Positions 9,012 through 63,462 of a stretch of 64,000 bases of DNA are shown here, piece by piece. The notes below the pieces were generated by a model. It was not told where the DNA came from. It did no database searches and saw nothing but the letters and a program-made list of their open reading frames with translations. The DNA is taken from the NCBI GenBank assembly GCA_030390025.1, contig CM059432.1, positions 18,168,001-18,232,000 of the forward strand. The letters run 5' to 3'. The position numbers and the translations under genes are program-made. Numbering within the stretch: the stretch's first letter is position 1; each line of letters begins with the position of its first letter. Origin of the DNA: Squalus acanthias. Its lineage: Eukaryota.

Positions 9012-10903
9012 TTTTTTTAATTCGTTTATGGGATGTGGGCGTCGCTGGCAAGGCCAGCATTTATTGTCCATCCCTAATTGCCCTTGAGAAGGTGGTGGTG
9101 AGCCACCTTCTTGAACCGCTGCAGTCCATGTGGTGAAGGTACTCCCACAGTGCTGTTAGGTAGGGAGTTCCAGGATTTTGACCCAGCGACAATGAAGCAT
9201 CGGCCGATATACTTCTAAGTCAGGATGGTGTGTGGCTTGGAGGGGAACTTGGAGGTGGTGGTGTTCCCATGCGCCTGCTGCCCTTGTCCTTCTCAGTGGA
9301 AGAGGTCACGGGTTTGGGAGGTGCTGTCGAAGAAGCCTTGGTGAGTTGCTGCAGCGCATCTTGTAGATGGTGCACACTGCAGCCACGGTACGTCGGTGGT
9401 GGAGGGAGTGAATGTTTAAGGTGGTGGATGGGGGGCCAATCAAGCGGGCTGCTTTGTCCTGGATGGTGTCGAGCTTCTTGAATGTTTTTGGAGCTGCACT
9501 CCTCCTGGCAAGTGGAGAGTATTCCATCACACTCCTTACTTGTGCCTTGTAGATGGTGGAAAGGCTTTGGGGAGTCAGGAGGTGAGACACTAGCCACAGA
9601 ATACCTAGCCTCTGACCTGCTCTTGTTGCCACAGTATTTATGTGGCTGGTCCAGTTAAGTTCCTGGTTAATGGTGACCCCCAGGATGTTGATAGTGGGGG
9701 ATTCGGCGATGGTAATGCCATTGAATGTCAAGGGGAGGTGGTTAGACTCTCACTTGTTGGAGATAGTTATTGCCTGGCACTTCTGTGGTGCGAATGTTAC
9801 CTGCCACTTATCAGCCCAAGCCTGAACGTCGTCCAGGTCTTGTTGTATGCGGGCATGGACTGCTTCATTATCTGAGGAGTTGTGAATGGCGCTGAACACT
9901 GTGCAGTCATCAGCAAACATCCCCATTTCTGACCTTATGTTGGAGGGAAGGTCATTGATGAAGCAGCGGAAGATGGTTGGGCCCAGGACACTGCCCTGAG
10001 GAACTCCTGCAGCGATATCCTGGGGCTGTGATGATTGACCTTCAACCACCACAACCATCCTCCTTTGTGCTAGTTATGACTCCAGCCAGTGGAATGTTTT
10101 CCCCCTGATTCCCATTGACTTCAGTTTTACTAGGGCTCCTTGATGCCACACTCGGTCAAAAGCTGCCTTGATGTCAAGGGCAGTCACTCTCACCGCACCT
10201 CTGGAATTCAGCTCCTTTGTCCATGTTTGGACCAAGGCTGTAATGAGGTGGGAAGCCGAGTGGTCTTGGCGGAACCCAAACTGGGTATCAGTGAGCAAGT
10301 TATTGGTAAGTAAGTGCCACTTGATAGCACTGTCGATGACACCTTCCATCACTTTGCTGATGATTGAGAGTAGACTGATGGGGCAGTAATTGGCCGGGTT
10401 GGATTTGTCCTGCTTTTTGTGGACAGGACATACCCGGGCAGTTTTCCACATTGTCGGATAGATGCCAGTGTTGTAGCTGTACTGGAACAGCTTGGCTAGT
10501 TCTGGAGCACAAGTCTTCAGCACGATAGACGGGATGTTGTCGGGGCCCATAGCCTTTGCTGTATCCAGTGCGCTCAGCCGTTTCTTGATATCACGTGGAG
10601 TGAATCGAATTGGCTGAAGACTGGCTTCTGTGATGGTGGGGACCTCGGGAGTAGGCTGATATGGATCATCCACTCGGCACTTCTGGCTGAAGATGGTTGC
10701 AAACGTTTCAGCCTTGTCTTTTGCACTCATGTGCTGGGCTCCACCATCATTGAGGATGGGGATATTCTTGGAGCCTCCTCCTCCCGTTAGTTGTTTAATG
10801 GTCCACCACCATTCATGACTGGATGTGGCAGGACTGCAGAGCTTTGATCTGATCCGTTGATTGTGGGATCGCTTAGCCCTGTCTATAGCATGCTGCTTCC
10901 GCT
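9012..10903 (-). mobile_element. 5'-truncated copy of the tRNA-headed EN-RT LINE family (CR1/L2 group)
   Basis: RT motifs QFGFR, LDIKAAFDRVWH, GVPQGSVLGP and FADD in ORFs 10074-10730, 9750-10058 and 9306-9731. Poly-A end at ~9012. Colinear with 39001-40890 and 51830-53694. Confidence 0.92.
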
Positions 10904-17309: not shown

Positions 17310-17501
17310 TAATGTAACCAAGTGTAGCAGTTTGATTTTTTAAGAATAAATGTAGCTACTTTTAGTTGCCACAACACTCCTGATACAAAATAATCTTGAA
17401 ATTACTGAATAAAACTGTTGGACTATGTGAAACTGACAAGAAACTGCTGAAACTCCACTAACCTTACAGCTGCGAGTAATTACTGCCGATCCCTTTAAAT
17501 A

Positions 17502-20500
17502 CTGTGCGGAAGCTGAACATCAACTCTCCGACACCTCCTCCTACCTCCGCCTGGACCATGACCCCACTAGCAAACATCAAGCCATTGTTTACAAGACTGT
17601 CACTGACCTCATCTCCTCTGGAGATGTTCCCTCCATGGCTGCCAACCTCATAGTCCCCCAACCCCGCACAGCCCGCTTCTACCTCCTTCCCAAGATCTAC
17701 AAACAGGACTGCCCTGGTAGACCCATCGTTTCAGCCTGTTCTTGCCCCACGGAACTTATCTCTTCCTATCTCGACTCTATTTTTTCTCCCCTTGTCCAGT
17801 CTCTTCCCACCTACACTCGCGACTCTTCCGACGCCCTCCGCCACCAGGATGGCCTTAGGGCTCTCTGCTTCTTCCTTGACGAGAGGCCCAACCAGTCCCT
17901 ATCCACCACCACCCTCCTCCGCTTGGCTGAACTTGTTCTCACATTGAACAACTTCTCCTTTGACTCCACTCACTTCCTCTAAATTATAGGTGTTGCTATA
18001 GGAACCCACATGGGCCCTAACTATGCCTGCCTTTTCATGGGATATGTTGAACATTCTTTGTTCCAGTCCTACTCAGGTCCCCTCCCTCACCTCTTTTTCT
18101 GGTAAATCAATGACTGTATTGGTGCCGTTTCCTGCTCTCGACCTGAACTAGAAAAGTTCATTCACTTTACTTCCAATTTCCACCCTTCCTTCACCTTCAC
18201 ATGGTCCCTCTCCGACTCTTCTCTTCCCTTCCTTGACTTCTCTGTCTCCATTTCTGGCGATAGGCTATCGACAAACATCCACTACAAGCCCACTGACTCC
18301 CACAGCTACCTGGACTACACTTCCTCCCACCCTGCTTCCTGTAAGGACTCTATTCCTCCAGTTTCTCCGTCTCCGCCGCATCTGCTCTGACGATACCACC
18401 TTCCATACAAGTACTTCCGACATGTCTTCCTTTTTCCTCAACCGAGGATTCCCCTCTACCATGGTTGACACGGCCCTTGACCGTGTCCGTTCCATTTCCC
18501 GCACTTCTGTTCTCACCCCTTCCCCTCCCTCTGTAGAATTCGCAAATTATCGCGATTTAAAAATAATGAGAAAGAGACATACAGTTTCGTAAAACGGCTT
18601 TATTTCAGCAAAATGCTGTCAGGTTTCAAAACGGACACAAGCAGCCTGTAAAATGGCCACCGCGCCTCGTGGCAGAAGTTTCTAGACTTTTCAGTAGGCA
18701 GACAAGATGGCGTTTCAATAAACATTTCAGCAAGATCGGACAGTACTCAGCATAATGAAATAAAGACAAGACGCGATCGTTTTGCATTTTGTACACCTAA
18801 GAGAATATAAGTGCTGGAATCGGTTTTCCATGCACAAACGAGGGCTATTGTACTGGGCAATCAAGGGCCCATCCAAAGACATTGATACGCAAATTCCCCA
18901 AGGCTCTACGATGAGAGAGCCGTTCGCGGGTACTCACAGCAAGAATTCGGAGGCCCCCAAAACCCCTCCAGGGAGACTCCTAGCCGGTTCCATAATGGGA
19001 GAAATATTAACGGGTACTTAGACAGTTACAAGTATCACCGAAACCCATTAGCAACGAGAACCACCCCATACAAGAAGTTTGAGCGCCAAAACATGACAAA
19101 AGATGAACATTAAGATTGGGCGGGAGATAAAGAATTACAGTACTATAACTGTAGTAAACAAACGTCCATCTTTCTCTTGATTCGACTCCTGGCTATCGTT
19201 TGCGGCCCACCGAGCGCTTGTCCGCTGATCTTCCGGGAGTCAACCTCATGGCTTGCCGCGAAGATCTGTGAAGAGCTGGGCTGCGAAGGCCGGTAAGCGG
19301 GTGCACCATCCCGAGGGTCGGTAAACGGTGTAGGGACCCGAAGGCCCGACGAGACGAAACAAGACAAGAAGAAGAAGAAGACGACTGCACGTGCCGCCGC
19401 GGTCAGTAAACCCCGACCGCGCCCGTAAATATAAAGACCATTTCTGAACTCTACAGGATACTGCATGAACTGGTCAAAAGACTCTTCTTTGAATTCTACC
19501 GGCTAACTGGTGTCGGTCCAGGAAGACTCTTCTTCGAGTTTTATCGGAGTTCCGAGGTCAACACAGATTTTCATGACAGCAGACGGTCCAGCCCGCTAGC
19601 CGGAGCAAAGCGAGTAAACAAGTGGGGTACAGAGACCCCTGATCAACACGTAAATAGTCAGGTGCTGTGGCGAAACCATCCGAGCATCGTTTTAGAATTC
19701 TCCGAGTTATCACGAGTGGTGAGCATGGATCTCGATCCTACAGATCTAGATTAGGACAGGTATTGATAGGGGAGGGTTTTTGTTTTAAGGATAATTATAA
19801 TGTGTGTCCCCTTTTATGATGTGTCATGCGCTCCTCGTTTCCCTAAACCTAGTTGCATAAATGTATGTAAGTTTGTACTGTCATTAATCTGTGCTTATGA
19901 CATGTATTTCATAATCTTGAATAATATGCAATAAAGATTTTCCATTTCGTACTATTCAACCGGGTCTACATGAGTTTTTCTCTGCATTTACTGCTCTCGC
20001 ACCTAAGTCCAGTGTCAGAACCGTAAGGGCGAGTGGGTCGAACCACTCACAGGTGTCTAGTGCTACCAGGCTGGCTGGAGACCAGAACAGGCAACAAGGC
20101 CTAACCCCGCACTAGCACCCAGGCTAAGCACAGAGCCACGCGAACCCCTTACACCTCCCAGACCATGATAGGGTTCCCCTTGTCCTCACCTTTCACCCCA
20201 CCAGCCTCCACATTCAACGGATCATCCTCCGTCATTTCTGCCACCTCCAACTTAATCCCACCACCAAACGCATCTTCCCCTCACCTCCCCTTTCAGCATT
20301 CCAAAGGGACTACTCCCTCCGCGACACCCTGGTCCACTCCTCAATCACCCTTAACAGCCCTTCCCCTTCGCCCGGCACCTTCCCGTGCAAGCGCAGCAGA
20401 TGCAACACCTTCCCTTTTACCTCCTCCCTTCCCACTGTCCAGGGCCCCAAACACCCCTTCCAGGTGAAACAGCGATTTACTTGTACTTCTTGCAATTTAG

Positions 20501-21507: not shown

Positions 21508-21891
21508 TTTTTTTAAAATTCATGCATGGGATGTGGGCGTCGCTGGCAATGCTAGCATTTATTGCCCATCACTAATTGCCCTTGAGAAGGTGGTGGTGAG
21601 CCGCCATTTCAGAGGGCATTTTAGAGTCAACCACATTGCTGTGGGTCTGGAGTCACATATAGGCCAGACCAAGTAAGGACGGCAGATTTCCTTCCCTAAA
21701 GGACATTAGTGAACCAGTTGGGTTTTTAGGACAATCCGGTAGTTTCATGGTCACCATTACTGACACTAGCTTTTTATTCCAGATTTTATTTAATAACTGA
21801 ATTTAAATTCCCCAGCTGTCTTGGTGGGATTTGAACTCATGTCTCCGGATCATTAGTCCACGCTGCTGGATTACAAGTCCATTAACATACC
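21508..21891 (-). mobile_element. SINE-like derivative: tRNA head plus 3' tail of the tRNA-headed LINE
   Basis: 21606-21891 matches the LINE head (B box GAGTTCAAATCCC). 21508-21605 matches the LINE 3' end. Joined at a GCC microhomology. Confidence 0.85.
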
Positions 21892-22071
21892 CTTAATTGG
21901 AGATAACCTCTGGCCAGTATTGCGTTACACCTATGAGTGATTAATGTGTGCTTATGGAAATGACTAAAGTGAGAATATTCCAAAATAATTATTCGGTAAT
22001 ACATAATAAATGGGTGGAAACATTACTGTAGACAGAACAATTGTATTCCTTTATAGTACAGTCTCATTTTA

Positions 22072-32679: not shown

Positions 32680-33515
32680 ATATAGAATTACACAGAAATT
32701 ACAGCACAGAAATAGTCCATTCAGCCCAACTGGTCTATGCCGGTGTTTATGCTCCACACGAGCCTCCTCCCATCTTACTTCATCTAACCCTATCTGTATG
32801 TCCTCTATTCCTTTCTCCCTTATGTGCTTATCTATCTTCCCCTTAAATGCATCTATGCTATTCGCCTCAACTGCCCGTGCTTGCAAACATCGCACCACTA
32901 CACCTACGCCGCAAATATGCAGTCTCCAGAAAGTACAATCGCTACATCAGCAAAGACATGCCGATCCAGGCCGACTTGAACAACCTACCACCAACCCGTC
33001 TCAAATCTAGAAGGCCATTTTGGACCGTCGCCAAAGCCCTTCAGCGATCTCCCCTCAGCCTTGATGACCGATGGCGAAATGGTTGGAAAAACTGTGATGT
33101 ACGGAATGGATTCCTTATAGAGGACCCCATAGTACAACCTGAAGAATCAAACCTTCCTCGCAAACAGTGGACAACCATCAACTGCCTCAGAACCGGTCAT
33201 GGTAGATGCTGCCACCTTCTCCATAGATGGAAGATTAAAGCATCCCCCATCATGTGACTGTGGAGCTCCTGATCAGACCCTGGAGCACATCATTGAGCAC
33301 TGCCCTCAGAGGAAATTCACAGGCAGCCTACAAGATACCCAGGCTGTTACACTGGAAGCTTTGGCCTGGATATCCGACTTAGTTATTGACATCTGATTTG
33401 CTTTGCTACTACCATACGACAGAAGAAGAGCCTCATCTACTCCATGTGGTAGCAGGTTTCACATTCTAACCACTCTCTGGGTAAAGAAGTTTCACTTAAA
33501 TTCCTTATTGGATTT
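32680..33515 (-). mobile_element. CR1 3' fragment, interrupted by a Vingi/Ingi-like LINE
   Basis: Reverse strand encodes AVEANSIDAFKGKIDKHIREKGIE and FFTQRVVRM*N, plus the tail. Confidence 0.75.
32873..33429 (+). mobile_element. Ingi/Vingi-like (I-group) LINE 3' fragment
   Basis: VLANIAPLHLRR, RLKSRRPF, WTTINCLRTGHGRC and CDCG..QTLEHII.HCP zinc knuckle; (GAA)n tail; TSD GCCTCAACT/GCCTCATCT. Confidence 0.7.
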
Positions 33516-33518
33516 ATT

Positions 33519-34277
33519 GGCCCAGATATTCTGATCCCTGCGGGTGTGTACGCGCTGTGTACCCACCCGTAGGGACATCGGAAATGCCGGTTTTAGGCAT
33601 GCACAGCGCATGCGCTGAAAACCGGCATTTCCGATCTATCAACAATGGTCTTGACAGATCCTCCGGCTGCCCTGGAGAAGGGCCTCTGCGGGCGGATAGT
33701 TCCGCTTTTTGGAGACCCTCCGCCCGCAGTAAACCCTTACAATTCTTACGCCTGGTAAAAGCAGGCATGAGGCCTGCTTTTACCAGGATAAGAGTTGAAA
33801 AAAGTAAACAAAGCAGTTTTTTTTCACTGATTTATTATTTAAAAATACTTTATAAAAAGGTAAGTTTATTTTTAGCCCCGTAAAAAACTTTAATTATTTT
33901 TTCAAAAAATTTAATTTTTGTTTAAAATATTGAATTTATTGTAATTTCAACTCATTTTAAAAGTGTGATTTAAAAAAAAATGTATTTAAAGTTTTACTAT
34001 GTTTTGGGGGTGATCGCCATTCATATATTTGACAGGTCTTCCTGTCAAATGCATGAAGGGAGATTCCCTTCTTTGATTGGCTCCCCATGGCCCACGTGAT
34101 CCCAGGGATGCTGCGAACTACCTGCGCCTCTGAGATACGTGGGCCCTGCACACTTGGAGTTTGGTGAGGCCCAGGAGCGGAAGCGTGTGCGTCCCGGGAG
34201 CCCTCAGGTAAGGGCGTAGATTTTTCCAGATCGCAGGCCTCTGCACGCGGGAGGCCTGCGATCGGAAAATACGGGCC
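33519..34277. mobile_element. Harbinger-type MITE family C
   Basis: GGCCCAGATATT/AAAATACGGGCC termini, ATT on both sides, GC-rich arms and AT-rich core; reverse homolog of 55788-56464. Confidence 0.85.
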
Positions 34278-35679: not shown

Positions 35680-37272
35680 ACAAACTAAAAGTCGACAAAT
35701 CCCAAGGATCGGATGACCTACATCCTAGGGTTTTGAAAGAGGTGGCGATTGGAATAGTGGACGCATTGGTTGTCATCTTCCAAAATTCTATAGATTCTGG
35801 AACAGTTCCTGCAGATTGGAAGATAGCAAATGTAACCCCGCAATTTAAGAAAGGAGGGAGAGAGAAAACGGGGAACTACAGACCTGTTAGCCTCACATCA
35901 GTAGTTGGGAAAATGCTGGAATCTATTATAAAGGATGCAATAACTGGGCACTTAGAAACTAATAGTAAGATTGGGCAGAGTCAACATGGATTTATGAAAG
36001 GGAAATCCTGTTTGACAAACCTATTGAAGTTCTTTCAGGATGTAACTAGTGGAGTAGACAAAGGGGAACCAGTAGATGTGGTGTATCTGGATTTTCAGAA
36101 GGCCTTCAATAAGGTCCCACACAAGAGGTTGGTGAACATGGAATTGGGGGTAATATACTAACATGGATTGAGAATTGGTTAACAGACAGAAAAAAAGGGT
36201 AGGGATAAACGGGTCTTTTTCAGGATGGCAGGCTTTGACTAGTGGGGTACCGCAAGAATCAATGCTTGGGCCCCAGCTATTCACAATCTATATCAATGAT
36301 TTGGATGAGGGGACTAAATGTAACATTTCCAAATTTGCTGGTGATACAAAGCTAGGTGGCAGTGTCAGTTGCGAAGAGGATGTGAAGAGGCTTCAAGGGG
36401 ATCTCGACAGGTTCAGTGAGTGGGCGAGAACATGGCAGATGGAATATAATGTGGATAAATGTGAAGTTATCCACTTTGGTAGAAAAAACAGAAAGGCTGT
36501 GTATTTCCTAAATGGTGAAAGATTGGGGAATGCAGATGCTCAAAGGGCCCTGGGTGTCCTTGTACATGAGTCACTGAAAGTGAATGTGCAGGTGCAGCAA
36601 GCCATTAGATAGGCAAATGGTATGCTGGCCTTCATTACAAGAGGATTTGAGTACAGGAGTAAAGAAGTCTTACTCCAATTATATAGGGCCTTGGTGAGAC
36701 CACACCTGGAGTACTGTGTACAATTTTGGTCTCCTTACCTAAGGAAGGATATACTTGCCATAGAGGGAGTGCAACGAAGGTTCACGAGATTGATTCCTGG
36801 GATGGCAGGACTGTCGTATGAGAAGAGATTGAGTAAACTAGGCCTGTATTCTCTTGAATTCAGAAGAATGAGAGGGGATCTCATTGAAGCATACAAAATT
36901 ATTACAGGGTTTGATAGGATGGATGCTGGGAGAATGTTTCCCTTAGCTGGGGAGTCTAGAACCAGGGGCCACAGCCTCAAGATAAAGGGTAGGCCATTCA
37001 GGACTGAGATGAGAAGAAATTTCTTCACACAGAAGGTGGTGAATCTTTGGAATTCTCTACCCCAGAGGGCTGTGGAGGCTCAGTCATTAGGTATATTCAA
37101 AACAGAAGTCGATAGATTTCTGACTAGTAAGGGCATCAAGGGATATGGCGATAGGGCTGGTGAATGGAGTTGAGGCAGAAGATCAGCCATGATCTCATTG
37201 AATGGCGGAGCAGGCTCGAAGGACTGAATGGCCTACTCCTGCTCCTATTTCTTATGTTCTTATGTTCTTATC
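35680..37272 (+). mobile_element. CR1 LINE, 5'-truncated, disrupted RT
   Basis: ORFs 35661-36161, 36175-36612 and 36622-37173 parallel the 688-aa ORF; (CTTATGTT)n tail. Confidence 0.95.
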
Positions 37273-39000: not shown

Positions 39001-42000
39001 TTTTTCTTTATTCGTTCATGTGATGTGGGCGTTGCTGGCAAGGACAGCATTTATTGCCCAACCCTACATGCCCTTGAGAAGGTGGTGGTGAGCCGCCTTC
39101 TTGAACCACTGCAGTCCTTGTGGTGAAGGTACTCCCACAGCGCTGTGAGGGAGTTCCCGGATTTTGACCCAGCGACGATGAAGGAATGGCGATATATTTC
39201 CAAGTCAGGATGGTGTGTAACTTGGAGGGGAAATTGCAGGTGATGGTGTTCCCATGCGCTTGCAGCCCTTGTCCTTCTAGGTGGTATAGGTCGCGGGTTT
39301 GGGAGGTGCTATTGAAGAAGCCTTGGTGAGTTGCTGCAGTGCATCTTGTAGATGGTACACACTGCAGCCACGGTGCACCAGTGATAAAGTGAGTGAATGT
39401 TTAAGGTGGCAGATGGGGTGTCGATCAAGCGGGCTGCTTTGTCCTGGATGGTGTCAAGCTTCTTGAGTGTTGTTGGAGCTGCACTCATCTAGGCAAGTGG
39501 AGAGTATTCCATCACACTCTTGACTTGTGCCTTGTAGATGGTGGAAAGGCTTTGGGGAGTCAGGAGGTGAGACACTCACCGCAGAATACCCAGCCTCTGA
39601 CCTGCTCTTGTTACCACAGTATTTATGTGGCTGGTCTATTTAAGTTTCTGGTCAATGGTGACCCCCCACGATGTTGATGGTGGGGGATTCGGCGATGGTA
39701 ATGCTGTTGCATATCAAGGGGCGGTGGTTAGACTCTCGCTTGTTGGAGCTAGTCATTGCCTAGCACTTGTGTGGCGCAAATGTTACCTGCCACTTATCAG
39801 CCCAAGCCTGAATGTCATCCAAGTCTTGCTGCATGCGGGCATGGACTACTTCATTATCTGAGGAATTGAGAATGGAACTGAAAACTGTGCAATCATCAGC
39901 AAACATCCCCATTTCTGACCTTATGATGGAGAGAAGGTCATTGATGAAGCAGCTGAAGATGGTTGGGCCTAGGACACTCCGTTGAGGAACTCCTGCAGTG
40001 ATGATCTGGGGCAGTGATGATTGACCGCCAACAACCACAACCATTTCCTTTGTGCTAGGTATGACTCCAGCCAGTGGAGAGTTTCCCCCCTGATTCCCAT
40101 TGACTTCAGTTTTACTAGGGCTCCTTGATGCCACACTCGGTCAAATGCTGCCTTGGTGTCAAGGGCAGTCACTCTCACCTCACCTCTGGAATTCAGCTCT
40201 TTTGTCCATGTTTGGACCAAAGCTGTAATGAGGTCTGGAGCCGAGTGGTCCTGGCGGAACCCAAACTGGGCATCGGTGAGCAGGTTATTGGTGCGTAAGT
40301 GCCGCTTGATAGCACTGTCGACGACAGCTTCCATCACTTTGCTGATGATTGAGAGCAGACTGATGGGGCGGTAATTGGCCGGATTGGATTTGTCCTACTT
40401 TTTGTGGACAGGACATACCTGGGCAGTTTTCCACATTGTCAGGTAGATGCCAGTGTTGTAGCTGTACTGGAACAGCTTGGCTAAAGGCGCAGCTAGTTCT
40501 GGAGTACATGTCTTCAGCACGACAGCCGGGATGTTGTCGGGGCCCGTAGCCTTTGCTGTATCCAGTGCGCTCAGGCATTTCTTGATATCACGTGGAGTGA
40601 ATTGGCTGAAGACTGGCTTCTGTGATGGTGGGGACGTCAGGAGGAGGTTGATATGGATCATCCACTCGGCACTTCTGGCTGAAGATGGTTGCAAATGCTT
40701 CAGCCTTGTCTTTTTCACTCATGTGCTGGGCTCCACCAGCGTTGAGGATGGGGATATTCATGGAGCCTCCTCCTCCCGTTAGTTGTTTAATTGTCCACCA
40801 CCATTCATGACTGGATGTGGCAGGACTGCAGAGCTTTGATTTGATCCATTGATTGTGGGATCGCTTAGCCCTGTCTATAGCTTGCAGCTTTTGCTGTTTA
40901 GCATGCATGTAGTCCTGTGTTGCAGCTTTCCCAGGTTTGCACCTCTTTTTTGGGTTCACCTGGTGTTGCTCCTGGCATGCTCTTCTGCACTTCTCATTGA
41001 ACCAGGGTTGGTCCCCTGGCTTGATGGTAATGGTAGAATGAGGGATATGCCAAGCCATGAGGTTACAGATTGTGGTGGAATACAATTCTGCTGCTGCTGA
41101 TGGCCCACAGCGCATCATGGATGCCCAGTTTTGAGCTGCTAGATCTGTTGTGAATCTATCCCATTTAGCACGGTGGTAGTGCCACACAACACGATGGAGG
41201 GTGTCCTCAATGTGAAGATGGGTCTTTGTCTCCACAATGACTGTGTGGTGGTCAGTGCTACTAATGCTGTCATGGACAGATGCATCTGCCACAGGTAGAT
41301 TGGTGAGGACGAGGTCAAGTAGATTTTTCCCTCGTGTTGGTTCTCTCACCACCTGTTGCAGGCCCAGTCTGGCAGCTATATCCTTCAGGACTCTGCCAGC
41401 TCTGTCAGTAGTGGTGCTACTGAGCCACTCTTGGTGATGTACATTGAAGGACCAAGAGTACATTCTGTGCCCTTGCTACCCTTAGTGCTTCTTCCAAGTG
41501 GTGTTCAACATGGAGGAGTACTGATTCATCAGCTGAGGGAGGGCGGTAGGTGGTAATCAGCAGGAGGTTTCCTTGCTTATGCTTGACCTGAAGCCATGAG
41601 ACTTCATGGGGTCCGGGGTCAATGTTGAGGACTCCCAGGGCCACTCTCTCCTGATTGTATACCACTGTGCCACCACCCCTGGTACAGTGATGGAGGCATC
41701 TGGGACATTGGCTGAAAGCTATGACCTGTTAGTATGACTATGTCAGGCTGTTGCATGACTTGTCTATGTAACAGCTCTCCCAATTTTGGCACAAGTCCCC
41801 AGATGTTAGTGAGGAGGACTTTGCAGGGTCGACTGAGCTGGGTGTGCTGTTGTCGCGTCTGAAGTCGATGCCAGGTGGTCCATCCGGTTTTATTCTTATT
41901 ATTGTTGTCTGTCGCGGTTAAGTACAACTGGATGGCTTGCTAGGCCATTTCAGAGGGCAGTTAAAAGTCAACCACATTGCTGTGGGTCTGGATTCACATA

Positions 42001-44070
42001 TAAGCCAGACCGGGTAAGGACAGCAGATTTCCTTCCCTAAAGGACATTAGTGAACCAGATGGGTTTTTACGACAATCCGATAGTTTCATGGTTATCATTA
42101 CTGATACTAGCTTTTTATTCCAGATTTATTTAATGGACGCGACTGCTACTGTAAGGGGTGACCTGCGGCTCTGTGCTTAGCCTAGGTGCTAGTGCGGGGT
42201 TAGGCCTTGTTGCCTGTTCTGGTCTCCAGCCAGCCTGGTAACACTAGACACCTGTGAGTGGTTCGACCCACTCGCCCTTATGGTTCTGACACTGGACTTA
42301 GGTGCGAGAGTAATAATGCAGAGAAAGACTCAGGTGGACCCGGGTGAATAGTGCGAAATGGAAAATCTTTATTGCATATTATTCAAGATTACGAGATACA
42401 TGTCATAAGCACAGATTAACGACAGTACAATCTTACACACAGTTATGAAACTAAATTTTAGGGAAACGAGGAGCGCATGACACATCGTAAAAAAAAAAGG
42501 GACACACATTATAATTATCCTTAAAACTTAAACCCTCCCCTATCAATACCTGTCCTAATCTAGATTTTTAGGATCGAGACTCATGCTCACCACTCGTGAT
42601 AACTCGGAGAATTCCGAAACTCTGCTCGGATGTTTTTCCCGCAGCACCTGACTATCCACGTGTTGATCAGGGGTCTCTGTACCCCACTTGTTTACTCGTT
42701 TCTGCTCCGGCTAGCAGGCTGGACCGTCTGCTGTCATGAAGATCTGTGTTCCGATACTACTCAAAAAAGAGTCTTCCTGTGCCCTACACCAGTTGTCTGT
42801 AGAACTCAAAGAAGGGTCTTCCTAGGCCAGTTGTGGAGTAGCCGATAAAATTCGAAGAAGTGTTTATTCGACTTACAGGCGCGGTCGGGGCTTACTGACC
42901 ATGGCAATGCGTATTGTCGTCTTCTTCTCTTCTCATCTCATCTCATCTCATCTCATCTCTCGGGGCTTCGGTTCCAACACCGTTTACCGACTTCTCGGGA
43001 TGGTGCGCCCGCTTCTAGGCCTCACAGCCCAGTTCTCCACAGATCTTCGCGGCAAGCCACGAGGTTGATCCTAGCGGATCAGAGTCCAGAGCCGTCAGGC
43101 AAGAGAATAAAAGTTCAGCAGCCTTCCAGCGAGTCAAAGCAGCAAGTGCAAGAAGAAGAGAAAGATGGACGGTTGTACCTTACAGTTATAGTGCTGGAAT
43201 TCCTCTTTTCCCGCCCAATCTTAATGTTTATCTTTTGTCAGGGTTTTGGCGCTCAAACTTCTTGTATAGGGTGATCTCCATCTTTAATGGGTTTCGGTGA
43301 TACTTGTAACTGTCTGAGTACCCGTTAATATTTCTCCCATTGTGGAACCGGCTAGTAGTCTCCCTGGAGGGGTTTTGGGGCTTCCAAATGCTTGCTGTAA
43401 GTACCCGCAAACGGCTTTCTCATCGTAGAGTCGTGGGGATTTTGCATATTAATGTCTTTGGATGGGTCCTTGATCGCTCGGTACAATAGCCCTTATTTGC
43501 ACCTGGGAGACCGATTCCAGTATTTATGTTTAAAATGCAAACCCATCATGTCTTGTCAATTATCTCAAATGTGCTGAGTCCTGTACGATCTTGCACAAAT
43601 GTTTATTGGAACGCCATCTTGTCTGCCCACTGAAAGTCTAGAACTTTCTGCCATGAGACGTGGCGGCCATTTTACAGGCTGTTTGTGTCCGTTTTGAAAC
43701 CTGACAGCATTCTGCTGAAATAAAAGCTGTTTGTACGAAACTTTATGTCTCCTTCTTATTTTATAAAATCGCGATAATTTTGCGAATTCTACACTACCAA
43801 CGAACCGGAAGCTGCGTAGAAGCGTTCTTTGCATGCGCGTTTCCGGCTCGTCACGGGAGCCGGCATTTAAAATTTTTTTTTTAAAATGCCGGGGTGGGAG
43901 CGGGCTCCTTGAAAAATGCCGGGGAGGGAGTGGGCTCGTGTAAAAATAACAGAAACATCACAGGGCCGGTTCTAGATTAATGCATAGTATGTTTCTGCCC
44001 AGTTTCCGGTTGTGGGATTTGAACTCATGTCCCTGGATCATTAGTCCCGTAACATAACCACTATGCTACC
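39001..44070 (-). mobile_element. Full-length tRNA-headed EN-RT LINE (head interrupted at 42134-~43997)
   Basis: A box at 44068-44058 and B box at 44024-44016. APE motifs TNIWGL, YRPP, LDLVLTN and DH, then RT. Poly-A end at 39001. Several frameshifts. Confidence 0.9.
42150..43793 (-). mobile_element. Solo LTR copy 3 (1644 bp)
   Basis: TGTA...TACA termini, TSD CTAC; close homolog of 22497-24185. Confidence 0.9.
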
Positions 44071-44254
44071 TTTACCCAATGTTGTTGGTGACTGCTGCTG
44101 TGTTACTTTTAGAGCTTTTCGGGAGTTTTTGCTGCTAGAACCGACAGTAATCATTTGTAAAAGTAATTTGGTGAGTTAGCAGAGGGTTTTTGCCCAGGGA
44201 CTTCTGGCAAACGTCTGATTTGTTTCAATGGGTTTGATGCTGATCCTGCCATTT

Positions 44255-49647: not shown

Positions 49648-50413
49648 GGGCCAGAAATTCGGCTTTCCGGCTTCCCGCGGGTGCAAGGATCGCACGTGTA
49701 CTTACCTACCGCGCCTGCCGTTGTGCTTCGGGCCCGTGTGGAATTCGGCTCCTGGGCCTCCTGCAGCTGCCGGTGTGCAGTGCTTGCGTATCCCAGGGGC
49801 GCAGTTAGTTCGAAGCGTCCCCTGGGATCACGTGGGCCATGGAGAGCCAATCAGAGCAGGGAATCTCCATTCATAGATTTTGACAGGAAGACCTGTCAAA
49901 TCTATGAATAGAGATCGGCCCGAAAACCTCACTAAAACGTCAGATAAATTTTAAAAAAAACATCACATTTTAAAAATAACTATAAATTACATAAATTAAC
50001 TACTTTAAACAAAAATTAAAATTTTTGAAAAAATTAATTACTCTTTTTAACGGTGCTAAAAATAAACTTACCTTTCTTTAAAGTATGTAAAAAAGATAAA
50101 CCTGTTGAAAAAATGTTTAAATTGTACTTAATTCACCACTTACCTTGTTAAAATCAGGCCTTGCGCCTCCTTTTTTCCTGCGCAGCTTCTCCATACTTAC
50201 ACTCACTCCAAAACCTGTAAAAAAAATGGAAGTTCGCTGCGTGCGCGCTGCCTCTCCGGCGTACGCAGTTGACCCTCGAACCCCTTCTTTCACGAGACCG
50301 GAAGTTCCGGTTTCCCATGCATGCACAGTGCATGCGCGAAACCGGCACTTCCGGTGGCCCTACGGGTGAGTACACAGCGCGTACTCACCCGTGGAGACCC
50401 GAATTTCTGCCCC
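49648..50413. mobile_element. Harbinger-type MITE (family C-related)
   Basis: TIR GGGCCAGAAATTC/GAATTTCTGCCCC; TSD ATT. Confidence 0.88.
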
Positions 50414-50471: not shown

Positions 50472-50538
50472 TAGCATAGTGGTTATGTTACTGGACTAGT
50501 AACTGGACTAATTATCCGGTAGACGCGAGTTCAAATTC
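50472..50538 (+). promoter_or_regulatory. Type-2 RNA polymerase III internal promoter (A box + B box)
   Basis: TAGCATAGTGG (50472-50482) fits TRGCNNARYGG. GTTCAAATTC at 50529-50538 reads GTTCAAATC in the 44016 and ~21830 copies. Confidence 0.75.
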
Positions 50539-53500
50539 CACCACAGGCAGCTGGGGAATTTAAATTCAGTTAATTAAATAAATCTGGAATAAAAAGCCAG
50601 TATCAGTAATAGTGAACACAAAACTATTGGATTGTCGTAATAAAACCACTAATGTCCTTTAGGGAAGGAAATCAGCCGTCCTGGCCTGGCCTATATGTGA
50701 CTCCAGACCCACAGCAATGTGGTTGACTCTGAAATGGCTGAGCAAGCCACTCAGTTGTAAAAAAACTGCTACGATAAATAATAAGAATAAAACCGGACGG
50801 ACCACTTGGCACCGGCTATGGACATGACAACAGCACACCCTGTCCAGTCGACCCTGCAAAGTCCTCCTCACCAACATCTGGGGACTTGTGCCAAAATTGG
50901 GAGAGCTGTCCCACAGACTAGTCAAGCAGCAGCCTGACATAGTCATACTCACAAAATCATACCTTTCAGCCAATGTCCCAAACTCCTCCATCACCATCCC
51001 TGGGTATGTCCTGTCCCACCGGCAGGACAGACCCACCAGGGGTGGTAGCACAGTGGTATACAGTCGAGAAGGGGTGTCCCTGGGAGTTTTCAACATTGAC
51101 TCTGGACCCCATGAAGTCTCATGGCTTCAGGTCAAGCATGGGCGAGGAAACCTCCTGCTGATTACCACCTACCGCCCTCCCTCAGCTGATGAATCAGTAC
51201 TCCTCCATGTTGAACACCACTTGGAAGAAGCACTGAGAGGAGCAAGGGCACAGAATGTACTCTGGGTGGGGGACTTCAACATCCATCACCAAGAGTGGCT
51301 CAGTAGCACCACTACTGACCGAGCTGGCCGAGTCCTGAAGGGCATAGCTGCCAGACTGGGCCTGTGACAGATGGTGAGAGAACCAACATGAGGGGAAAAA
51401 CCTACTTGACCTCATCCTCACCAATCTACCTGTCGCAGATGCATCTGTCCATGACAGCATTGGTAGCAGTGACCACCGCATAGTCATTGTGGAGACGCAG
51501 TCCCGTCTTTACACTGAGGACACCCTCCATCGTGTTGTGTGGCATTACCACCATGCCAAATGGGAGAGATTCAGAACAGATCTAGCAGCTCAAAACTGGG
51601 CATCCATGAGGCACTGTGGGTCATCAACAGCAGCAGAATTGTATTCCACAATAATCTGTAACATCATGGCCCGGCATATCCCTCACTCTACCATTACCAC
51701 CAAGCCAGGGGACCAACCCTGGATCAATAAGGAGTGTAGAAGGGCATGCCAGGAGCAGCACCAGGCGTACCTAAAAATGAGGTGCCTACCTGGGGAAGCT
51801 GCAACACAGGACTACATGCATGCTAAAAAGCAGAAGCAGCATTCTATAGACAGGGCTAAGCGATCCCACAATCAACGGATCAGATCAAAGCTTTGGTGGT
51901 GGAATATTAAACAACTAATGGGAGGCGGAGGCTCCAGGAATATGCCCATCCTCAAAGATAGTGGAGCTCAGCATTTGAGTGCAAAAGCCAAAGCTGAAGC
52001 GTTTGCAACCATCTTCAGCCAGAAGTGCCGAGTGGATGATCCATATCAGCCTACTCCCGAGGTCCCCACCATCACAGAAGCCAGTCTTCAGCCAATTCGA
52101 TTCACTCCACGTGATATGAAGAAACAGCTGATACACCAAAGGCTATGGGCCCCAACAACATCCCGGCTGTCGTGCTGAAGACTTGTGCTCCAGAACTAGC
52201 CACGCCTCTAGTCAAGCTGTTCCAGTACAGCTATAACACTGGCATCCATCCGACAATGTGGAAAACTGCCCAGGTATGCCCTGTCCACAAAAAGCAGGAC
52301 AAATCCAATCCGGCAAATTACCGCCCCATCAGTCTACTGTCAATCATCAGCAAAGTGATGGAAGGTGTCGTCGACAGTGCTATCAAGCTGCACTTACTCA
52401 CCAATAACTTGCTCAAAGATGCCCAGTTTGGGTTCAGCCACGACCACTCGGCTCCAGACCTCATTACAGCATTGGTCCAAACATGGACAAAAGAGCTGAA
52501 TTCCAGAGGTGAGGTGAGAGTGACGGCCGTTGACATCAAGGCAGCATTTGACCGAGTGTGGCATCAAGGAGCCCTAGTGAAACTGAAGTCAATGGATATC
52601 GGGGGGAAATCTCTCCACTGGCTGGAGTCATACCCAGCACAAAGGAAAATGGTTGTGATGGTTGAAGGTCAATCATCACAGCCCTAGGACATCGCTGCAG
52701 GAGTTCCTCAGGGCAGTGTCCGAGGCCCAACCATCTTCAGCTGCTTCATCAATGACGTTCTCTCCATCATAAGGTCAGAAATGGGGATGTTCGCTGATGA
52801 CTGCACAGTGTTCAGTGCCATTCGCAACTCCTCAGATAATGAAGCAGTCCATGCCCGCATGTAACAAGACTTGGATGACATTCAGGCTTGGGCTGATAAG
52901 TGGCAGGTAACATTTGCACCACACAAGTGCTAGGCAATGACTTTCTCCAACAAGCGAGCGTCTAACCACCACCCCTTGATATGCAACAGCATTACCATTG
53001 CCGAATCCCCTACCATCAATAACCTGGGGGTCACCATTGACCAGAAATTTAACTGGACCAGCCACATAAATACTGTGGCACCAAGAGCAGGTCAGAGGCT
53101 AGGTATTCTGCAGCGAGTGTCTCACCTCCTGACTCCCCAAAGTCTTTCCACCAGCTACAAGGCACAAGTCAGGAGTGTGATGGAATACTCTCCACTTGCC
53201 TGGATGAGTGCAGCTCCAACAACACTCAAGAAGCTCGACACCATCCAGGACAAAGCAGCCCGCTTGATTGGCATCCCATCGACCACCTTGAACATTCACT
53301 TCCTCCACCACCGGTGTACCGTGGCTGCAGTGTGTACCATCTACAAGATGCACTGCAGCAAAATGCCAAGGCTTCTTCGGCAGCACCTCCCAAATGCACA
53401 ACCTCTTCCACCTAGATGGACAAGGGCAGCATGGGAAAATACCACCACCTCCAAGTGCCCCTTCAAGTCACACACCATCCTGATTAGGAAGTATATCGCC

Positions 53501-53694
53501 GATCCTTCACCGTCGCTGGGTCAAAATCCCGGAACTCCCTTCTTTAACAGCACTGTGGGAGTACCTTCACCACACGGACCGCAGCGGTTCAAGAAGGCGG
53601 CTCACCACCACCTTCTCAAAGACAACTAGGGATGGGCAATAAATGCTGGCCTTGCCAGCGATGCCCACATCCCATGAACGAATAAAAAAAAAAA
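50472..53694 (+). mobile_element. Full-length tRNA-headed EN-RT LINE (~3.2 kb, no ORF1)
   Basis: Head, then APE (TNIWGL ~50870, YRPP, GDFN, SDH), then RT (QFGF, AFDRVWH, PQGS, FADD), a short 3' UTR and poly-A. Contains stops and frameshifts. Confidence 0.92.
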
Positions 53695-55564: not shown

Positions 55565-56867
55565 GGGCTGGAAATTGCGGTCGGAGGCTTCCCGCAGGCG
55601 AATGCCTCCGAATCGCAAGTAAACTCCGCACCCACCTGGTGCCTCTGGACCTTCGAAGACTCACGCTCCTGGGCCTGCGGGCGTAGGCCTGCGTAAAGGC
55701 CCACGTATCCCAGGAGCACAGGCGGTTCACAAGCATTTACATACGGAATCCCCATAAGAATAACAGGAATCCCCTAAAAAACACACTGGCCCGTATTTTC
55801 CGATCACAGGCCGCCCGTGGGCGGAGGCCTGCGATCTGGAAAAATCTACGCCCTTACCTGAGGGCTCCCGGGACGCACACGCTTCCGCTCCTGGGCCATG
55901 ATCACGTGGGCCATGGGGAGCCAATCACAGAAGGGAATCTCCCTTCATACATTTGACAGGAAGACCTGTCAAATATATGAATGAAGATCACCCCAAAAAC
56001 ATAGTAAAACTTTAAATAAATTAAAAAAAAAAATCACATTTTTAAAATGACTTGAAATTGCAATAAATTAAGTATTTTAAACAAAAATTTAATTTTTTGA
56101 AAAAAATAATTAAAGTTTTTTTTACAGGGCTAAAAAGAAACTTACCTTTTTTTTAAAGTTTTTTAAATGATAAATCAGTGAAATTTTAAAAAAAACTTTT
56201 TTGAACTCTTATCCTGGTAAAAGCAGGCCTTACGCTTTTACCAGGCGTAAGAATTGTAAGGGTTTTCTGTGGGCGGAGGGTCTCCAAAAAGCGAACTCTC
56301 CGCCCACAGAGCCCCTTCTCCAGGGCAGCCGGAGGATCTGTCAAGACCATTCTTGACAGATCGGAAATGCCGGTTTTCAGCGCATGCGCTGTGCATGCTG
56401 AAACCGGCATTTCCGATGTTCCTATGGGTGAGTACCCACCCGTAGGGATCGGAATATCTGGGCCATTATCACAGCACTGAAATAAAAATAAATCATCACA
56501 TGGTCAAAATTATTTAAAATACAATTTAATTAAACATTTAAAACAAAAATTTTATTTTTTGAAAAATAAATTTAAACATTTTTCAAGAGGCCAAAAGTAA
56601 CCTAATTTTAAAGGTTTTTGTATGGGTAAATCATTTAACATTTTTTTATTTTATTATTTATTTAAACCCATACACTGGTAAAAGAAGGCCAGGCGTAAGG
56701 GTTTTGTGGGCATTCGCTGGGCAGTAGTTGGGCAAATAGCCCAACCCTGCGCCAGCGAATGTCCATTTCCCGCGGATGAACACGATCTGTCAAGCTGAAA
56801 CTTGACAGATCGCAAGTTCCGGGTTTTCGCGCAGCGTACGTGGTCATAGACCCCGAAAATCTGGACC
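55565..56867. mobile_element. Harbinger-type MITE hosting a nested family C MITE
   Basis: Starts GGGCTGGAAATT and ends AAAATCTGGACC; same GC-arm/AT-core layout as 49648-50413. Confidence 0.65.
55788..56464. mobile_element. Harbinger-type MITE family C (nested)
   Basis: GGCCCGTATTTT/AATATCTGGGCC termini, flanks ACT/ATT; reverse homolog of 33519-34277. Confidence 0.85.
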
Positions 56868-58475: not shown

Positions 58476-61400
58476 ATGGCTGATCAGAGGCCCAGAGAGA
58501 GCGAGAGCTGGTTCAGCGACCAGGCTTTGCAGGCCCTGGTCGCGGCTGTGGAACGCCGACGGGCAGTGCTCTTCCCGGACACTGGCAAGAGGCATTGCCG
58601 CAGGACTTTAGGAGGATGTGGAGGGAGGTCGCCCAGGACGTGTCGGCCAGAAGTGTGGTCCCCAGAACTCTCACCCAGTGCCGGAGAAATTCAATGACCT
58701 CACTCGGGTGGCCAGGGTGAGTAGATGCTTCAAAAACCTCTACATCCCACCATCTCAACCTCACTCTGTGCACACACTGTATAAATCACCACATCCCCAA
58801 CACTCACCGATCAACTATGCCCACCTACTAAAAGTGACATGCACATCTTAAGGGGGTGGTTAAAAGTGGATAAATCCCCAGGCCCAGACGAGATGTATCC
58901 CAGGCTGCTGTGTGAGGCAAGGGGGGAGATTGCAGGGGCTCTGACACAAATTTTCAGAACCTCTCTGGCCACAGGGGAGGTGCCAGAGGACTGGAGAACA
59001 GCTAACGTTGTACCATTGTTCAAGAAGGGTAGTAGGGATAAACCAGGGAATTACAGGCCAGTGAGCCTAACATCAGTGGTAGGGAAATTATTGGAAAAAA
59101 TTCTGAGGGACAGAATTAGTCTCCACTTGGAGAGGCAAGGATTAATCAAGGATAGTCAGCATGGCTTTGTCAGGGGGAGATCATGTCTGACCAATTTGAT
59201 TGAATTTTTCGAGGGGGTGACTAGGTGTGTGGATGAGGGTAGTGCAGTTGATGTGGTCTACATGGACTTCAGAAAGGCTTTTGACAAAGTCCCGCATGGG
59301 AGACTGGTCAAGAAGGTAAGAGCCCATGGGATCCAGGGCAACTTGGCACATTGGATCCAAAATTGGCTTCGTGGCAGGAGGCAGAGGGTGATGGTCGAAG
59401 GTTGTTTTTGTGACTGGAAGCCTGTGTCCAGTGGTGTACCGCAAGGATTGGTGCTGGGTCCTTTGCTGTTTGTAGTGTACATTAATGATTTAGATATGAA
59501 TGTAGGAGGTATGATCAGTAGGTTCGTAGATGACACGAAAATTGGTGGAGTGGTAAATAGCGAGGAGGGAAGCCTCAGGCTACAGGACGATATAGACGGG
59601 TTGGTCAGATGGGCAGAACAGTGGCAAATGGAATTTAACCCTGAAAAGTGTGAGGTGATGCATTTTGGGAGGACTAACAAGGCAAGGGAATACACAATGA
59701 ATGGTGGGACCCTAGGAAGGACAGAGGATCAGAGGGACCTTGGTGTGCATGTACATAGATCCCTGAAGGCAGCAGGACAGGTAGATAAGGTGGTTAAAAA
59801 GGCATATGGAATACTTGCCTTCATTAGCCGAGGCATAGAATATAAAAGCAGGGAGGTTATGATGGAGCTGTACAAAACGCTAGTTAGGCCACAGCTGGAA
59901 TACTGTGTGCAGTTCTGGTCGCCACACTATAGGAAGGATGTGATTGCATTGGAGAGGGTGCAGAGGAGATTCACCAGGATGTTACCTGGGCTGGAGCACT
60001 TCAGCTATGAAGAGAGACTGGACAGGCTGGGGTTGCTTTCCTTAGAGCAGAGAAAGCTGAGGGGGGACCTGATTGAGGTGTACAAAATTATGAGGGACAT
60101 AGATAGGGTAGATAGAAAGGAACTTTTCCCCTTAGTAGAGGGGTCAATAACCAGGGGGCATAGTTTCAAGGTAAGGGGCAGGAGGTTTAGAGGGGATTTG
60201 AGGAAAAACTTTTTCACCCAGAGGGTGGTTGGAATCTGGAACTCACTGCCTGAAAGGGTGATAGAGGCAGGAACCCTCACAACATTCAAGAAGTATTTAG
60301 ATGTGCACTTGAAACACCATAGCATACAAGGCTACGGACCAAGTGCTGGAAAATGGGATTAGAATAGACAGGGCTTGATGGCCGGCGCTGACACGATGGG
60401 CCGAAGGGCCTCTTTCTGTGCTGTATAACTCTATGACTCGATGACTCTATCTCATGCCTTGCATACATTAACAGCGATTCAACTATGGTAGGCACATCTG
60501 CCAAACACGTGGCTGCACACTCACTCACACGCTTTCCTTTTTCTTGGAGGCCAAGCTTGCTCACAACAGGAGGGAGCAGCTATGAACAGAAGGAGGTGAG
60601 GCGGACCTGGAGGAGCGAGTGGTCCGCATCATTGGGGCCCAGGTCGTGGGCGCTGTGGCCGTTGGAGACTTCGACGCCCTTGGGGAACAACAACGGTATG
60701 TTCATCTCCCTCTTCTCGCATAACACCTCCCCTTCACACCACAAGCCTTTCCCACTTTCCATCTAAGTGTACTGTCTCCATTCCTTGCTCCCTTCCTGCC
60801 CCCCTCCCCTGACCTTAACCCCACTCTTGTGCCTTTATGCTTTCAGATAATCAGCCAACAGCTGGCCAGCCTGTCCCTCAGCCTCCCAGTGGCAGCGACG
60901 CGGGAGAGGAGGATGAAGAACAAGCCAGAGCCTCACTGCCTTTGTCTCCCGAGGGCGAGATGTCCAATAATGGGGCGACACGGTCGCTGGAGGGGAGCCT
61001 AGTAGATGGGTCTGATGTGGGTGAAGCTCCGGGACCCAGCGGGCTGCAGCAATGCCATGGGGAAAGGGAATCTCGGGGGCCATCTCCCCGGAGCGTGAGT
61101 GCGTGCGCGAGTTCTGCTGCACAGGACTCAGATGAGGACCTCGATGTGGAGGCGTTGACCAGACGGGCGATGGGCATGCACACCGAGCTCATGGGAGCAA
61201 TGGCAAGGGTGCCCAAGAGCATGAATGCACTGGCAAGGAGCGTGGAGGAATTCGCCTCTAACATTGCACTCAGCTCTGCTCACACCATCGAGCCCATCCT
61301 TGGCACTTTACAGAGGATGGTCGACTCGCAGAGGGAACATGGGGAACCAGACCTTATGCCGCGTGTCATGGGTGAGGTGGCAGCAGCTATTGCAGCACAG

Positions 61401-62297: not shown

Positions 62298-63462
62298 CTA
62301 TATCATTGATTGGAAGCGCTGTCTAATGAGGCGCTCACGCACGGCCCTTGCAGAAGCATGATTGAGTGCCTCCCTCCTCTGTTGCTGCTGCTCCTCCTCC
62401 TCCTCTTCATCCTCCTCCTCCACCTCCTCCTCCTCCTGAGGTGGACCTGTAATCCCTGGTGGCAATGGCTGGGCCCTCAGAATGGCCAGGTTGTGCAGCA
62501 TGCAGCACACAACAATGAAAATGGAGACTCGATCAGAGGAGCACTGCGGGGCTCCTCCAGAGCGATCAAAGCAGCGGAACCATTGCTTTAGCACTCCGTT
62601 AGTGTGTTCGATCAGGTTCCTGGTGGCGCTATGGCTGTCATTGTATGTGTGCTGAGCAGGAGTGTTGGGGTTGTGGAGGGGTGTCATCAGCCAGGTGGCG
62701 AGTGGATAACCCTTGTCCCCGAACAGCCAGCCGTGAGCTTCATGTGGTGGGTGGAACAGTGCTGGGACACCGGTCTGTCGCAGGATGAATGCATCGTGGC
62801 TGCTGCCAGGATAGTGGGCATTGATGGCAAGGATGCGCTGTCTGTGGTCGCACACCAACTGAACGTTCAGAGAGTGGTAGCCTTTGCAGGTTGCGGAGCA
62901 CCTCTGCATTGTGATGAGGTGCCCGTAATGCCACGTGGGTGCAGTCAATGGTGCCCTGAACCATGGGGAAGCCGCTATCCTTGCAAAGCCACATGAGAGT
63001 TCATCCTGTTTCTCTCTGGTCATGGGGAATGAGATGTACTCCCTTCTCCTTCTGTAGAGAATGTCTTTTACCTCCCGGATGCAGCAATGGATAGCAAACT
63101 GCGAAATCTTTGCAATATCTCCTGGAAGAAGCCGTTGGCGTAGAATTTGAAAGAGACTGTGATCTTAACTGCCACTGAGAGAGACATCCTGGTCCTGAGC
63201 TGAGGCTGGAGGTCTGGCTGCAGGAGGTGGCAGAGCTCTGTGACCACCTCTTTGCTGAAGTAGAGCCTTCTAAGGCACTTCTCCTCTGAGAGATGAATGT
63301 AGGAGAAGTGCTCCCGGAAAACCCTGGGAGGGTCAGGCCTCCTGTTGCGACGTCTGTCGGCCCTCTCCTACCCCTGGCCACATTTGGCAATCTCTGTCTC
63401 TGCATCCGCTGCCTCCGACGTAGTTGCCGGGGGGCAAGGTGGAGCGCCAGTACAGCCCCCAT
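62298..63462 (-). pseudogene. Harbinger DDE transposase, copy 3, frameshifted
   Basis: MGAVLAL start as in copy 1; QGTIDCTHV, KGYHSLNVQLVCD, SHDAFIL, GDKGYP, IEHTNGVLK, CCMLHNL. Confidence 0.92.

Follow-up and report, generated by a model that had tools for sequence, protein, structure and literature searches.

A Zenon LINE of Squalus acanthias with a tRNA-type 5′ head and a terminator-free coding strand, a candidate for Pol III transcription

The window, a 64-kb stretch of the 3.7-Gb Squalus acanthias genome, consists nearly entirely of repeats, among them copies of a tRNA-headed LINE and a short derivative of it (Table 1). Copy 1 differs by 6.0% from the column majority of 19 aligned copies and carries six stops and two frameshifts relative to natural open frames; copy 2 has more. 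Both copies are dead and have lost their autonomy. No intact full-length ORF was found among 144 scored loci, and the family therefore looks inactive in this genome.

Table 1. Features of the LINE copies and the short derivative in the 64-kb window
Feature	Position	Strand	Remarks
Copy 1, near-full-length tRNA-headed Zenon LINE	50472..53694	+	Decayed; without the first 8 family bases
Class II tRNA-derived head (Ser-GCT or Leu-TAA) of copy 1	50472..50550	+	Long extra arm; 10 bases deleted in copy 1
A box (TAGCATAGTGG)	50472..50482	+	Conserved among aligned copies
B box	50529..50538	+	One mismatch, at a conserved C, relative to the family's GTTCAAATCC
5′ UTR body	50551..50786	+	Common to SINE-sized derivatives; not a Deu domain
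Short leader frame	50787..50921	+	44–48 codons; overlaps the start of the EN-RT frame; no ATG start in copy 1
EN (APE)-RT single ORF	50828..53629	+	Broken by stops and frameshifts; Pfam PF03372, PF14529, PF00078
3′ UTR stem-loop and short poly(A) tail	53627..53694	+	Stem-loop contains AATAAA; tail follows
Copy 2, head	44011..44077	-	A box 44068-44058; intact B box 44024-44015
Copy 2, insertion	42135..44010	-	1,876 bases of foreign repeats; ~30 element bases lost
Copy 2, remainder (rest of UTR, EN-RT ORF, tail)	39001..42134	-	ORF broken; 86.6% identity to copy 1
Third copy of the Zenon LINE	9012..10903	-	5′-truncated; 88.9% to copy 1
SINE-sized derivative	21508..21892	-	385 bases; head and UTR joined to the last ~100 LINE bases

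Copy 2 is split: its head ends at 44011 and the element picks up again at 42134, across an insertion that holds a 1.64-kb TG...CA solo-LTR-like repeat (43793-42150) with a 4-bp target duplication, itself nested inside ~230 bases of another sequence. The sequence-only reading had described two full-length copies starting at the same point with a perfect A box and a B box, followed ~390 bp later by an endonuclease motif. Both copies are indeed tRNA-headed LINEs with the A box, but copy 2 is interrupted and copy 1 is short of the 8 bases that should precede its A box, and the B box is intact in copy 2 only, copy 1 carrying one mismatch. The spacing is valid for copy 1 alone (398 bases from A box to motif), because 1,876 bases of other repeats interrupt copy 2. 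For the same pair, a common head–ORF junction had been claimed; what they share is the UTR–ORF junction, the path from head to ORF in copy 2 not being unbroken. That the element leaves no space for an ORF1 was borne out, the endonuclease motif TNIW of copy 1 standing at 50870.

Copies elsewhere in the genome support the view that the tRNA-type head is an integral part of a protein-coding LINE family and forms its fixed 5′ end. Of 26 loci that we checked for full length, 18 can be aligned over the entire element, head included, at 2.8–7.3% from the column majority, and the UTR–ORF junction is identical in all full-length copies. End-to-end alignment of these 18 further copies upholds two earlier claims, namely that the head is no chance SINE neighbour and that it belongs to a SINE-headed, protein-coding retrotransposon, fixed as it is at the 5′ end of an EN-RT LINE. 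The family 5′ end lies 8 bases upstream of the A box (GGGAACGG).

So that the head would play no part in the selection, we further drew 40 loci from the 144 that contain an internal piece of the ORF, 20 for their long open frames and 20 from the top of the list. Seven of these reach the head (six start at bases 1–3 and the seventh has a deletion), and 33 are 5′-truncated between bases 104 and 911. The case that the sequence-only reading had named as speaking against it, longer copies with another 5′ UTR or an ORF1, was looked for and is absent among these 40 copies, which share no alternative 5′ region. When the 1 kb upstream was compared across the same 40 loci and 30 junction-picked ones, eight pairs shared sequence near the break, and these are duplicated loci or other repeats at differing breakpoints. 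In two other organisms, contig ends accumulate at the identical first base (792 and 703 loose ends), and a contig of one further organism spans the UTR into the endonuclease. Convincing target-site duplications were not seen in the 18 full-length copies.

A first look at the whole genome gave at least 2,979 candidates for the UTR–ORF junction and at least 100,413 for the ORF piece. At 40 evenly chosen places, the Zenon family and its short forms occupy 19,961 of 400,000 bases (∼5%). Contigs of the element also fill all 30 bins in eight runs, where to regard the contigs as RNA is a guess.

The first 400 bases of the published SquAca_Zenon-1 match the copies here by eye (PMC13343379), and on this match, not on the RT tree described below, the copies are assigned to the elasmobranch Zenon family of the CR1 group, a 3.3-kb LINE with a published consensus. 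The available part of Stuart et al. 2026 (PMC13343379) reports Zenon elements from five elasmobranchs, coelacanth and hagfish, none of them with an ORF1 and all ending in a poly(A) tail, which only Zenon has among the CR1 group; it states that the elasmobranch elements were never deposited in a repeat library. Since all Zenons in that account are without ORF1, its absence is no novelty but an ordinary and general trait of a family whose consensus was already published. SquAca_Zenon-1/2/3, CarCar, RhiTyp, ScyCan and HypSab_Zenon-1 agree with our copies in their 3.3-kb length, single ORF and poly(A). For the stingray, the supplement of that paper counts 3 of 612 ORF2 as intact. The terms tRNA, Pol III and polymerase III occur nowhere in the main text of PMC13343379, and the head, the absent terminators, the AUG-less ORF and the short derivatives found here are undescribed in the part of it available to us.

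In a quick, unfinished tree of 79 RT domains, which held no labelled Zenon reference, the RT fell among invertebrate-type elements (named neighbours include crab, shrimp and brittle star), far from the genome's CR1s. It is 33% identical to the two CR1 families of the window, from which a long, fully supported branch separates it. Assignment to a canonical vertebrate CR1 (HER1-like) was rejected with the RT outside the vertebrate CR1 clade, and so was an L2 assignment via L2-2_CM, which had rested on a guess of a Deu domain; the published Zenon consensus matches instead. Whole relatives returned by protein searches are only 33–48% identical. On the 5′ side of metagenome relatives, ARAGORN called a tRNA at 0 of 25 loci and the A–B box pattern was present at 0 of 52, counts that say little because identity is 24–44% and many contigs end near the ORF.

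We compared the family heads with three types of the genome's own tRNA genes, Ser, Leu and Arg. Against shuffles, z reached 5.2–9.2 for tRNA-Ser(GCT) and tRNA-Leu(TAA) and −0.5 to 2.7 for tRNA-Arg, and by these scores the source of the head is a class II tRNA (Ser or Leu). Ten Zenon rows of PMC13343379 (seven elasmobranch, two hagfish and one coelacanth) were read by eye over their first 400 bases. All seven elasmobranch rows start with the head, and none contains a run of four T in that stretch. The A box is present in all five species (Squalus, Carcharodon, Rhincodon, Scyliorhinus and Hypanus) and varies only at purine and free (degenerate) positions; the B box reads GTTCRAATCC in four of the five species' consensuses, that of the stingray (Hypanus) having a one-base gap. 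By eye, one lineage has CTGG...CCAG as its extra arm and three others have CCAG...CTGG, with pairing kept. The two hagfish rows and the coelacanth row are headless, with several T-runs in their first 400 bases.

Behind the head, APE endonuclease and RT are combined in one ORF (FADD motif at 52790-52801 in copy 1; natural frames of 828 and 371 amino acids), and in full-length copies the endonuclease motif lies ∼440–460 bases from the 5′ end, with no ORF1. The EN-RT frame opens ∼40 codons ahead of this motif, and an in-frame ATG ahead of the motif is absent in all 16 readable copies; the first 340 bases contain 6–10 ATGs per copy. An ATG opens the leader frame in 10 of 19 copies, being missing in the other nine, and also in the published consensuses of five species. 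Between the leader start and the endonuclease motif, 16 of 19 copies differ in length by multiples of three, although a common 12-base deletion sits between short direct repeats and may simply arise easily. The pattern of ATGs suits internal initiation better than it suits cap-dependent scanning, by a mechanism that we infer.

Two candidates for the start of translation were rejected: an ACG start codon in the EN frame, which is conserved in Squalus acanthias and not in the consensuses of the other four species, and a structured (IRES-like) UTR, the predicted structure of which is unremarkable (z 0.42). At the other end, the 3′ UTR stem-loop folds with z −2.2 and −2.4 in two copies. The 83 listed 3′ ends, one of them a false hit, comprise 65 with at least five A before any T-run, 16 with a T-run first and two with neither.

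Production of the long RNA by Pol III would require a sense strand without terminators, the minimal forms of which are T4 and TVTTT (PMC8466645). In the 3,311 majority columns, T occurs seven times in a run of three and never in one of four or more; runs of four or more number 14 for A, 11 for C and 9 for G. Minimal terminators on the coding strand amount to 0 in the majority columns and 0–4 per copy in 18 natural copies, which carry 16–26 on the opposite strand. As controls, two CR1 families from this genome reach 3.7 and 6.4 minimal terminators per kb, all 52 metagenome control LINE ORFs (550 codons or longer) have at least 2.7 per kb, and none of the 54 control ORFs approaches zero.

How far this exceeds expectation depends on the null model. 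Synonymous shuffles expect 3.2–3.6 minimal terminators (p 0.009–0.015 in four copies and 0.094 in a fifth, the five being one family and hence one datum). For T4 alone, zero occurrences have a probability of 0.006–0.015 under base shuffles, and first-order and codon-preserving nulls expect ∼2 (p 0.11–0.26). Few terminators are expected because the coding strand is T-poor (20% T, with TT at 0.72–0.75 of expectation). TTT is the most depleted CpG-free trinucleotide in four of five copies tested, and runs of A, C and G occur at expectation. The signal is partly generic, since some headless LINEs are also low in TTT (L138, z −4.1; the CR1 L203, z −2.4; for each the terminator deficit has p 0.006), and three of nine codon-shuffled controls fall below their own shuffles (p 0.006–0.016) yet keep 9–18 sites. 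The terminator deficit is real, T-specific and complete, and goes only moderately beyond the generic tendency.

The head is also found on short copies. Among 29 head-picked loci, 15 are short head–tail elements, 12 extend into the ORF and two are fragments. At 19 short loci, the part from the 5′ side stops at bases 297–345 and the part from the 3′ side begins at 3146–3222, always ahead of the ORF stop at 3228, so that the end of the coding frame is kept. These 19 loci give 18 raw junctions, or about ten classes after alignment noise, and contigs of other organisms show additional head–tail junctions. Because the many distinct junctions all keep both LINE ends, the SINE-sized copies are, judged by their structure, repeated internal deletions of the Zenon LINE. 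A Deu domain was rejected for their body, as the UTR differs from the published Deu alignment and lacks four of five short Deu motifs taken from the PMC7245038 supplement, and the short copies are therefore not SacSINE1. Held to the definition of a tRNA-SINE, the Zenon LINE itself has the head with A and B boxes and no internal Pol III terminator in its majority columns; being short and non-coding is a property of the deletion derivatives only, not of the 3.3-kb LINE.

In the textbook division, Pol II makes LINE mRNAs, and SINEs are short transcripts of Pol III that depend on proteins borrowed from LINEs. We lean towards the head as the likely Pol III promoter of the element itself, serving the entire 3.3-kb coding RNA. 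Two sequence features lend new support to Pol III: the lack of a minimal terminator on the coding strand and the conservation of the boxes across sharks and rays. To the fuller proposal we give an even chance: an autonomous, protein-coding LINE would be expressed from a captured tRNA promoter as a terminator-purged 3.3-kb Pol III mRNA, be translated without a cap or an in-frame AUG, have been successful since the shark–ray split, and act as a standing source of SINEs by internal deletion. Counting against a Pol III reading, SINEs span 100–700 bases and the processivity of Pol III is described as weak (PMC10886601).

On this proposal, an ancestral Zenon would have gained the head before the shark–ray split, by switching template to a tRNA or to an earlier SINE. 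TFIIIC would bind the A and B boxes and Pol III would start at base 1, reading the T-run-free body and the A tail until it met a T-run in the flanking DNA. Translation of the uncapped RNA would begin internally, probably at the short leader frame, and then shift into, or restart in, the EN-RT frame. The resulting protein would bind the 3′ stem-loop and the copy be inserted by target-primed reverse transcription, and any internal deletion that retained head and tail would be a working SINE at once.

If true, a LINE carrying a SINE promoter would be a natural kilobase-long Pol III mRNA, with which the reach of Pol III in the absence of terminators, and the translation of such an RNA, become directly testable. 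The route of SINE birth would be reversed relative to the published model, with the head first and the deletion second, many times over, and the mechanism would have been very successful, since the family covers ∼5% of the sampled genome. What seems new here is the head on a LINE, the terminator-free coding strand and the shedding of SINEs by deletion; the family itself is known, though little studied. In the openly accessible literature searched, we found no autonomous LINE with a tRNA head or a Pol III promoter.

The strongest competitor, which we consider somewhat unlikely, makes the head a passenger or helper: Pol II would produce the full-length RNA, capped or not, from an internal 5′ UTR promoter or by read-through, and Pol III would use the head only for the short derivatives. 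The boxes would then stay intact through slow shark evolution and exchange with short copies, and the scarcity of T-runs would reflect a T-poor strand. LINEs are generally transcribed by Pol II (PMC10886601), an AATAAA stands ∼45 bases before the A tail, and between the species rows of PMC13343379 conservation of the UTR behind the boxes is similar to that of the boxes themselves. The T4 deficit alone is likewise non-significant under codon-aware nulls, and TTT-poor headless LINEs exist. Against this stand the 0 of 54 control ORFs that come near zero terminators and, in the rows of PMC13343379 read here, interspecies changes in the boxes that hit degenerate positions. The 6–10 upstream ATGs and the missing in-frame ATG poorly suit a scanned, capped mRNA, and the ancestral promoter region seems to have been replaced, because the 5′ end of the headless relatives in PMC13343379 is different and T-rich. 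Even if Pol II makes the long RNA, we found no prior description, in the openly accessible literature searched, of a head-bearing LINE with a swarm of deletion SINEs.

We hold it improbable that the head acts instead as RNA, either through an RNase P-like 5′ cut that would free a unit-length uncapped RNA from host read-through, or as a structure that recruits ribosomes or stabilises the transcript, in the manner of the R2 and L1Tc ribozymes. The element's 5′ end does fall at about tRNA position 1, the anticodon-like and extra stems of the PMC13343379 rows stay paired between species by eye, and there is precedent in uncapped processed LINE RNAs and in the tRNA-like IRES proposed for L1Tc (PMC3383444). 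The cloverleaf, however, is badly preserved: ARAGORN called a tRNA in one of four full-length copies tested and none in the 64-kb window, Rfam gave no tRNA match on the copy 1 head, and the predicted fold of the head is no better than that of shuffled sequences (z about −1), its acceptor stem being unpaired. Nor would a role as RNA explain the missing T-runs.

Chance or recurrent chimeras, in which independent SINE insertions or template switches put heads on truncated LINEs, could draw on the 1.9 kb between head and ORF in copy 2 and on the abundance of short SINE-like copies sharing the head, but are refuted, and have next to no probability left, by full-length copies that align end to end with one identical UTR–ORF junction (at least 2,979 first-look candidates) and by the same junction in the consensuses of five species (PMC13343379).

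The Pol III-driven coding element that we favour resembles several known systems in part. R2 and L1Tc are likewise autonomous, with RNA thought to be uncapped and translated independently of a cap, but depend on a self-cleaving ribozyme within transcripts of Pol I or Pol II in place of a tRNA-type promoter (PMC3383444). Cassandra, Helenus and Ajax (TRIMp3) are non-SINE retrotransposons with Pol III promoters derived from small RNAs, but are non-coding LTR elements of 311–1,263 bases with no enzymes of their own (PMC10886601). SacSINE1 and the Deu-SINEs of sharks also combine a tRNA head with a CR1-group tail (PMC5499810), whereas the body here is not a Deu domain, a distinction drawn from the published Deu alignment and its motifs. 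Bov-tA and the RTE- and Vingi-derived SINEs join a small-RNA head to LINE 5′ and 3′ parts as well (Kojima 2018, PMC5786205); in the model given there the head joins only once the deletion has occurred, and Pol II still drives the autonomous LINE, whereas here the coding element bears the head. In Lepidoptera, too, a Zenon LINE repeatedly spawns head-plus-tail deletion products with a poly(A) end, the short element Persaeus; Persaeus is described in the available part of PMC6740152 as without tRNA homology or a Pol III promoter, whereas the derivative here inherits the tRNA head.

Among the 3′ ends of Zenon family copies, a run of at least four T precedes the A tail in 16 of 83, which resembles the terminator elongation of T+ SINEs; such a run lies within 30 bases in 24 of the 83, compared with 16.5% of random 30-mers. 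The decay of one head-bearing copy (L230:7208-7963) is unusual, with dozens of small deletions (224 of 978 columns gapped) and few substitutions.

Near the 5′ end, a repeat of ~700 bases terminates 60 bases upstream of copy 1, the decayed near-full-length Zenon LINE on the forward strand, and the same repeat is contained in the LINE 5′ UTR at two other family loci (L072 and L087). Short Deu-type motifs are present in the 400-kb genome sample (L229-L268), where one 10-mer has 19 matches; these motif matches point to a separate Deu-SINE family in the Squalus acanthias genome.

The Zenon family is also present in a hexanchiform shark, since the gene model of a Heptranchias perlo protein annotated as an aldo-keto reductase (P0118) includes, in frame, ~220 residues of the Zenon ORF, reflecting either exonisation or an annotation error.

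The window carries several other transposable elements. Its two CR1 families are younger than the Zenon family; each yields >500,000 first-look candidates in the genome, and both have open ORF2 frames of ~1,000 aa at other genomic loci. A solo-LTR-like repeat of 1.64 kb (TG...CA) occurs three times, its copies being 83–94% alike, and the DDE_Tnp_4 transposase, also multicopy, is presumably of the Harbinger/ISL2EU type.

Repeats and transposable elements in the window
Feature	Window position	Strand	Remarks
1.64-kb solo-LTR-like repeat	18532-20153	+	4-bp target duplication
1.64-kb solo-LTR-like repeat	24185-22496	-	4-bp target duplication
1.64-kb solo-LTR-like repeat	43793-42150	-	4-bp target duplication
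CR1 families (n = 2)	11732-13816 and 58785-60362	+	additional pieces at 35693-37257
DDE_Tnp_4 transposase	62298-63164	-	further related copies: 202-1963, 15996-17314
~700-base repeat	49744-50409 (beside copy 1), 33515-34182, 55900-56468		

Elsewhere in the Squalus acanthias genome, tRNA-Ser(GCT) and tRNA-Arg(TCG) genes lie in long tandem arrays that repeat every ~1,620 bases, located at ~39.0–41.9 Mb of contig C26 (L275 and L276).
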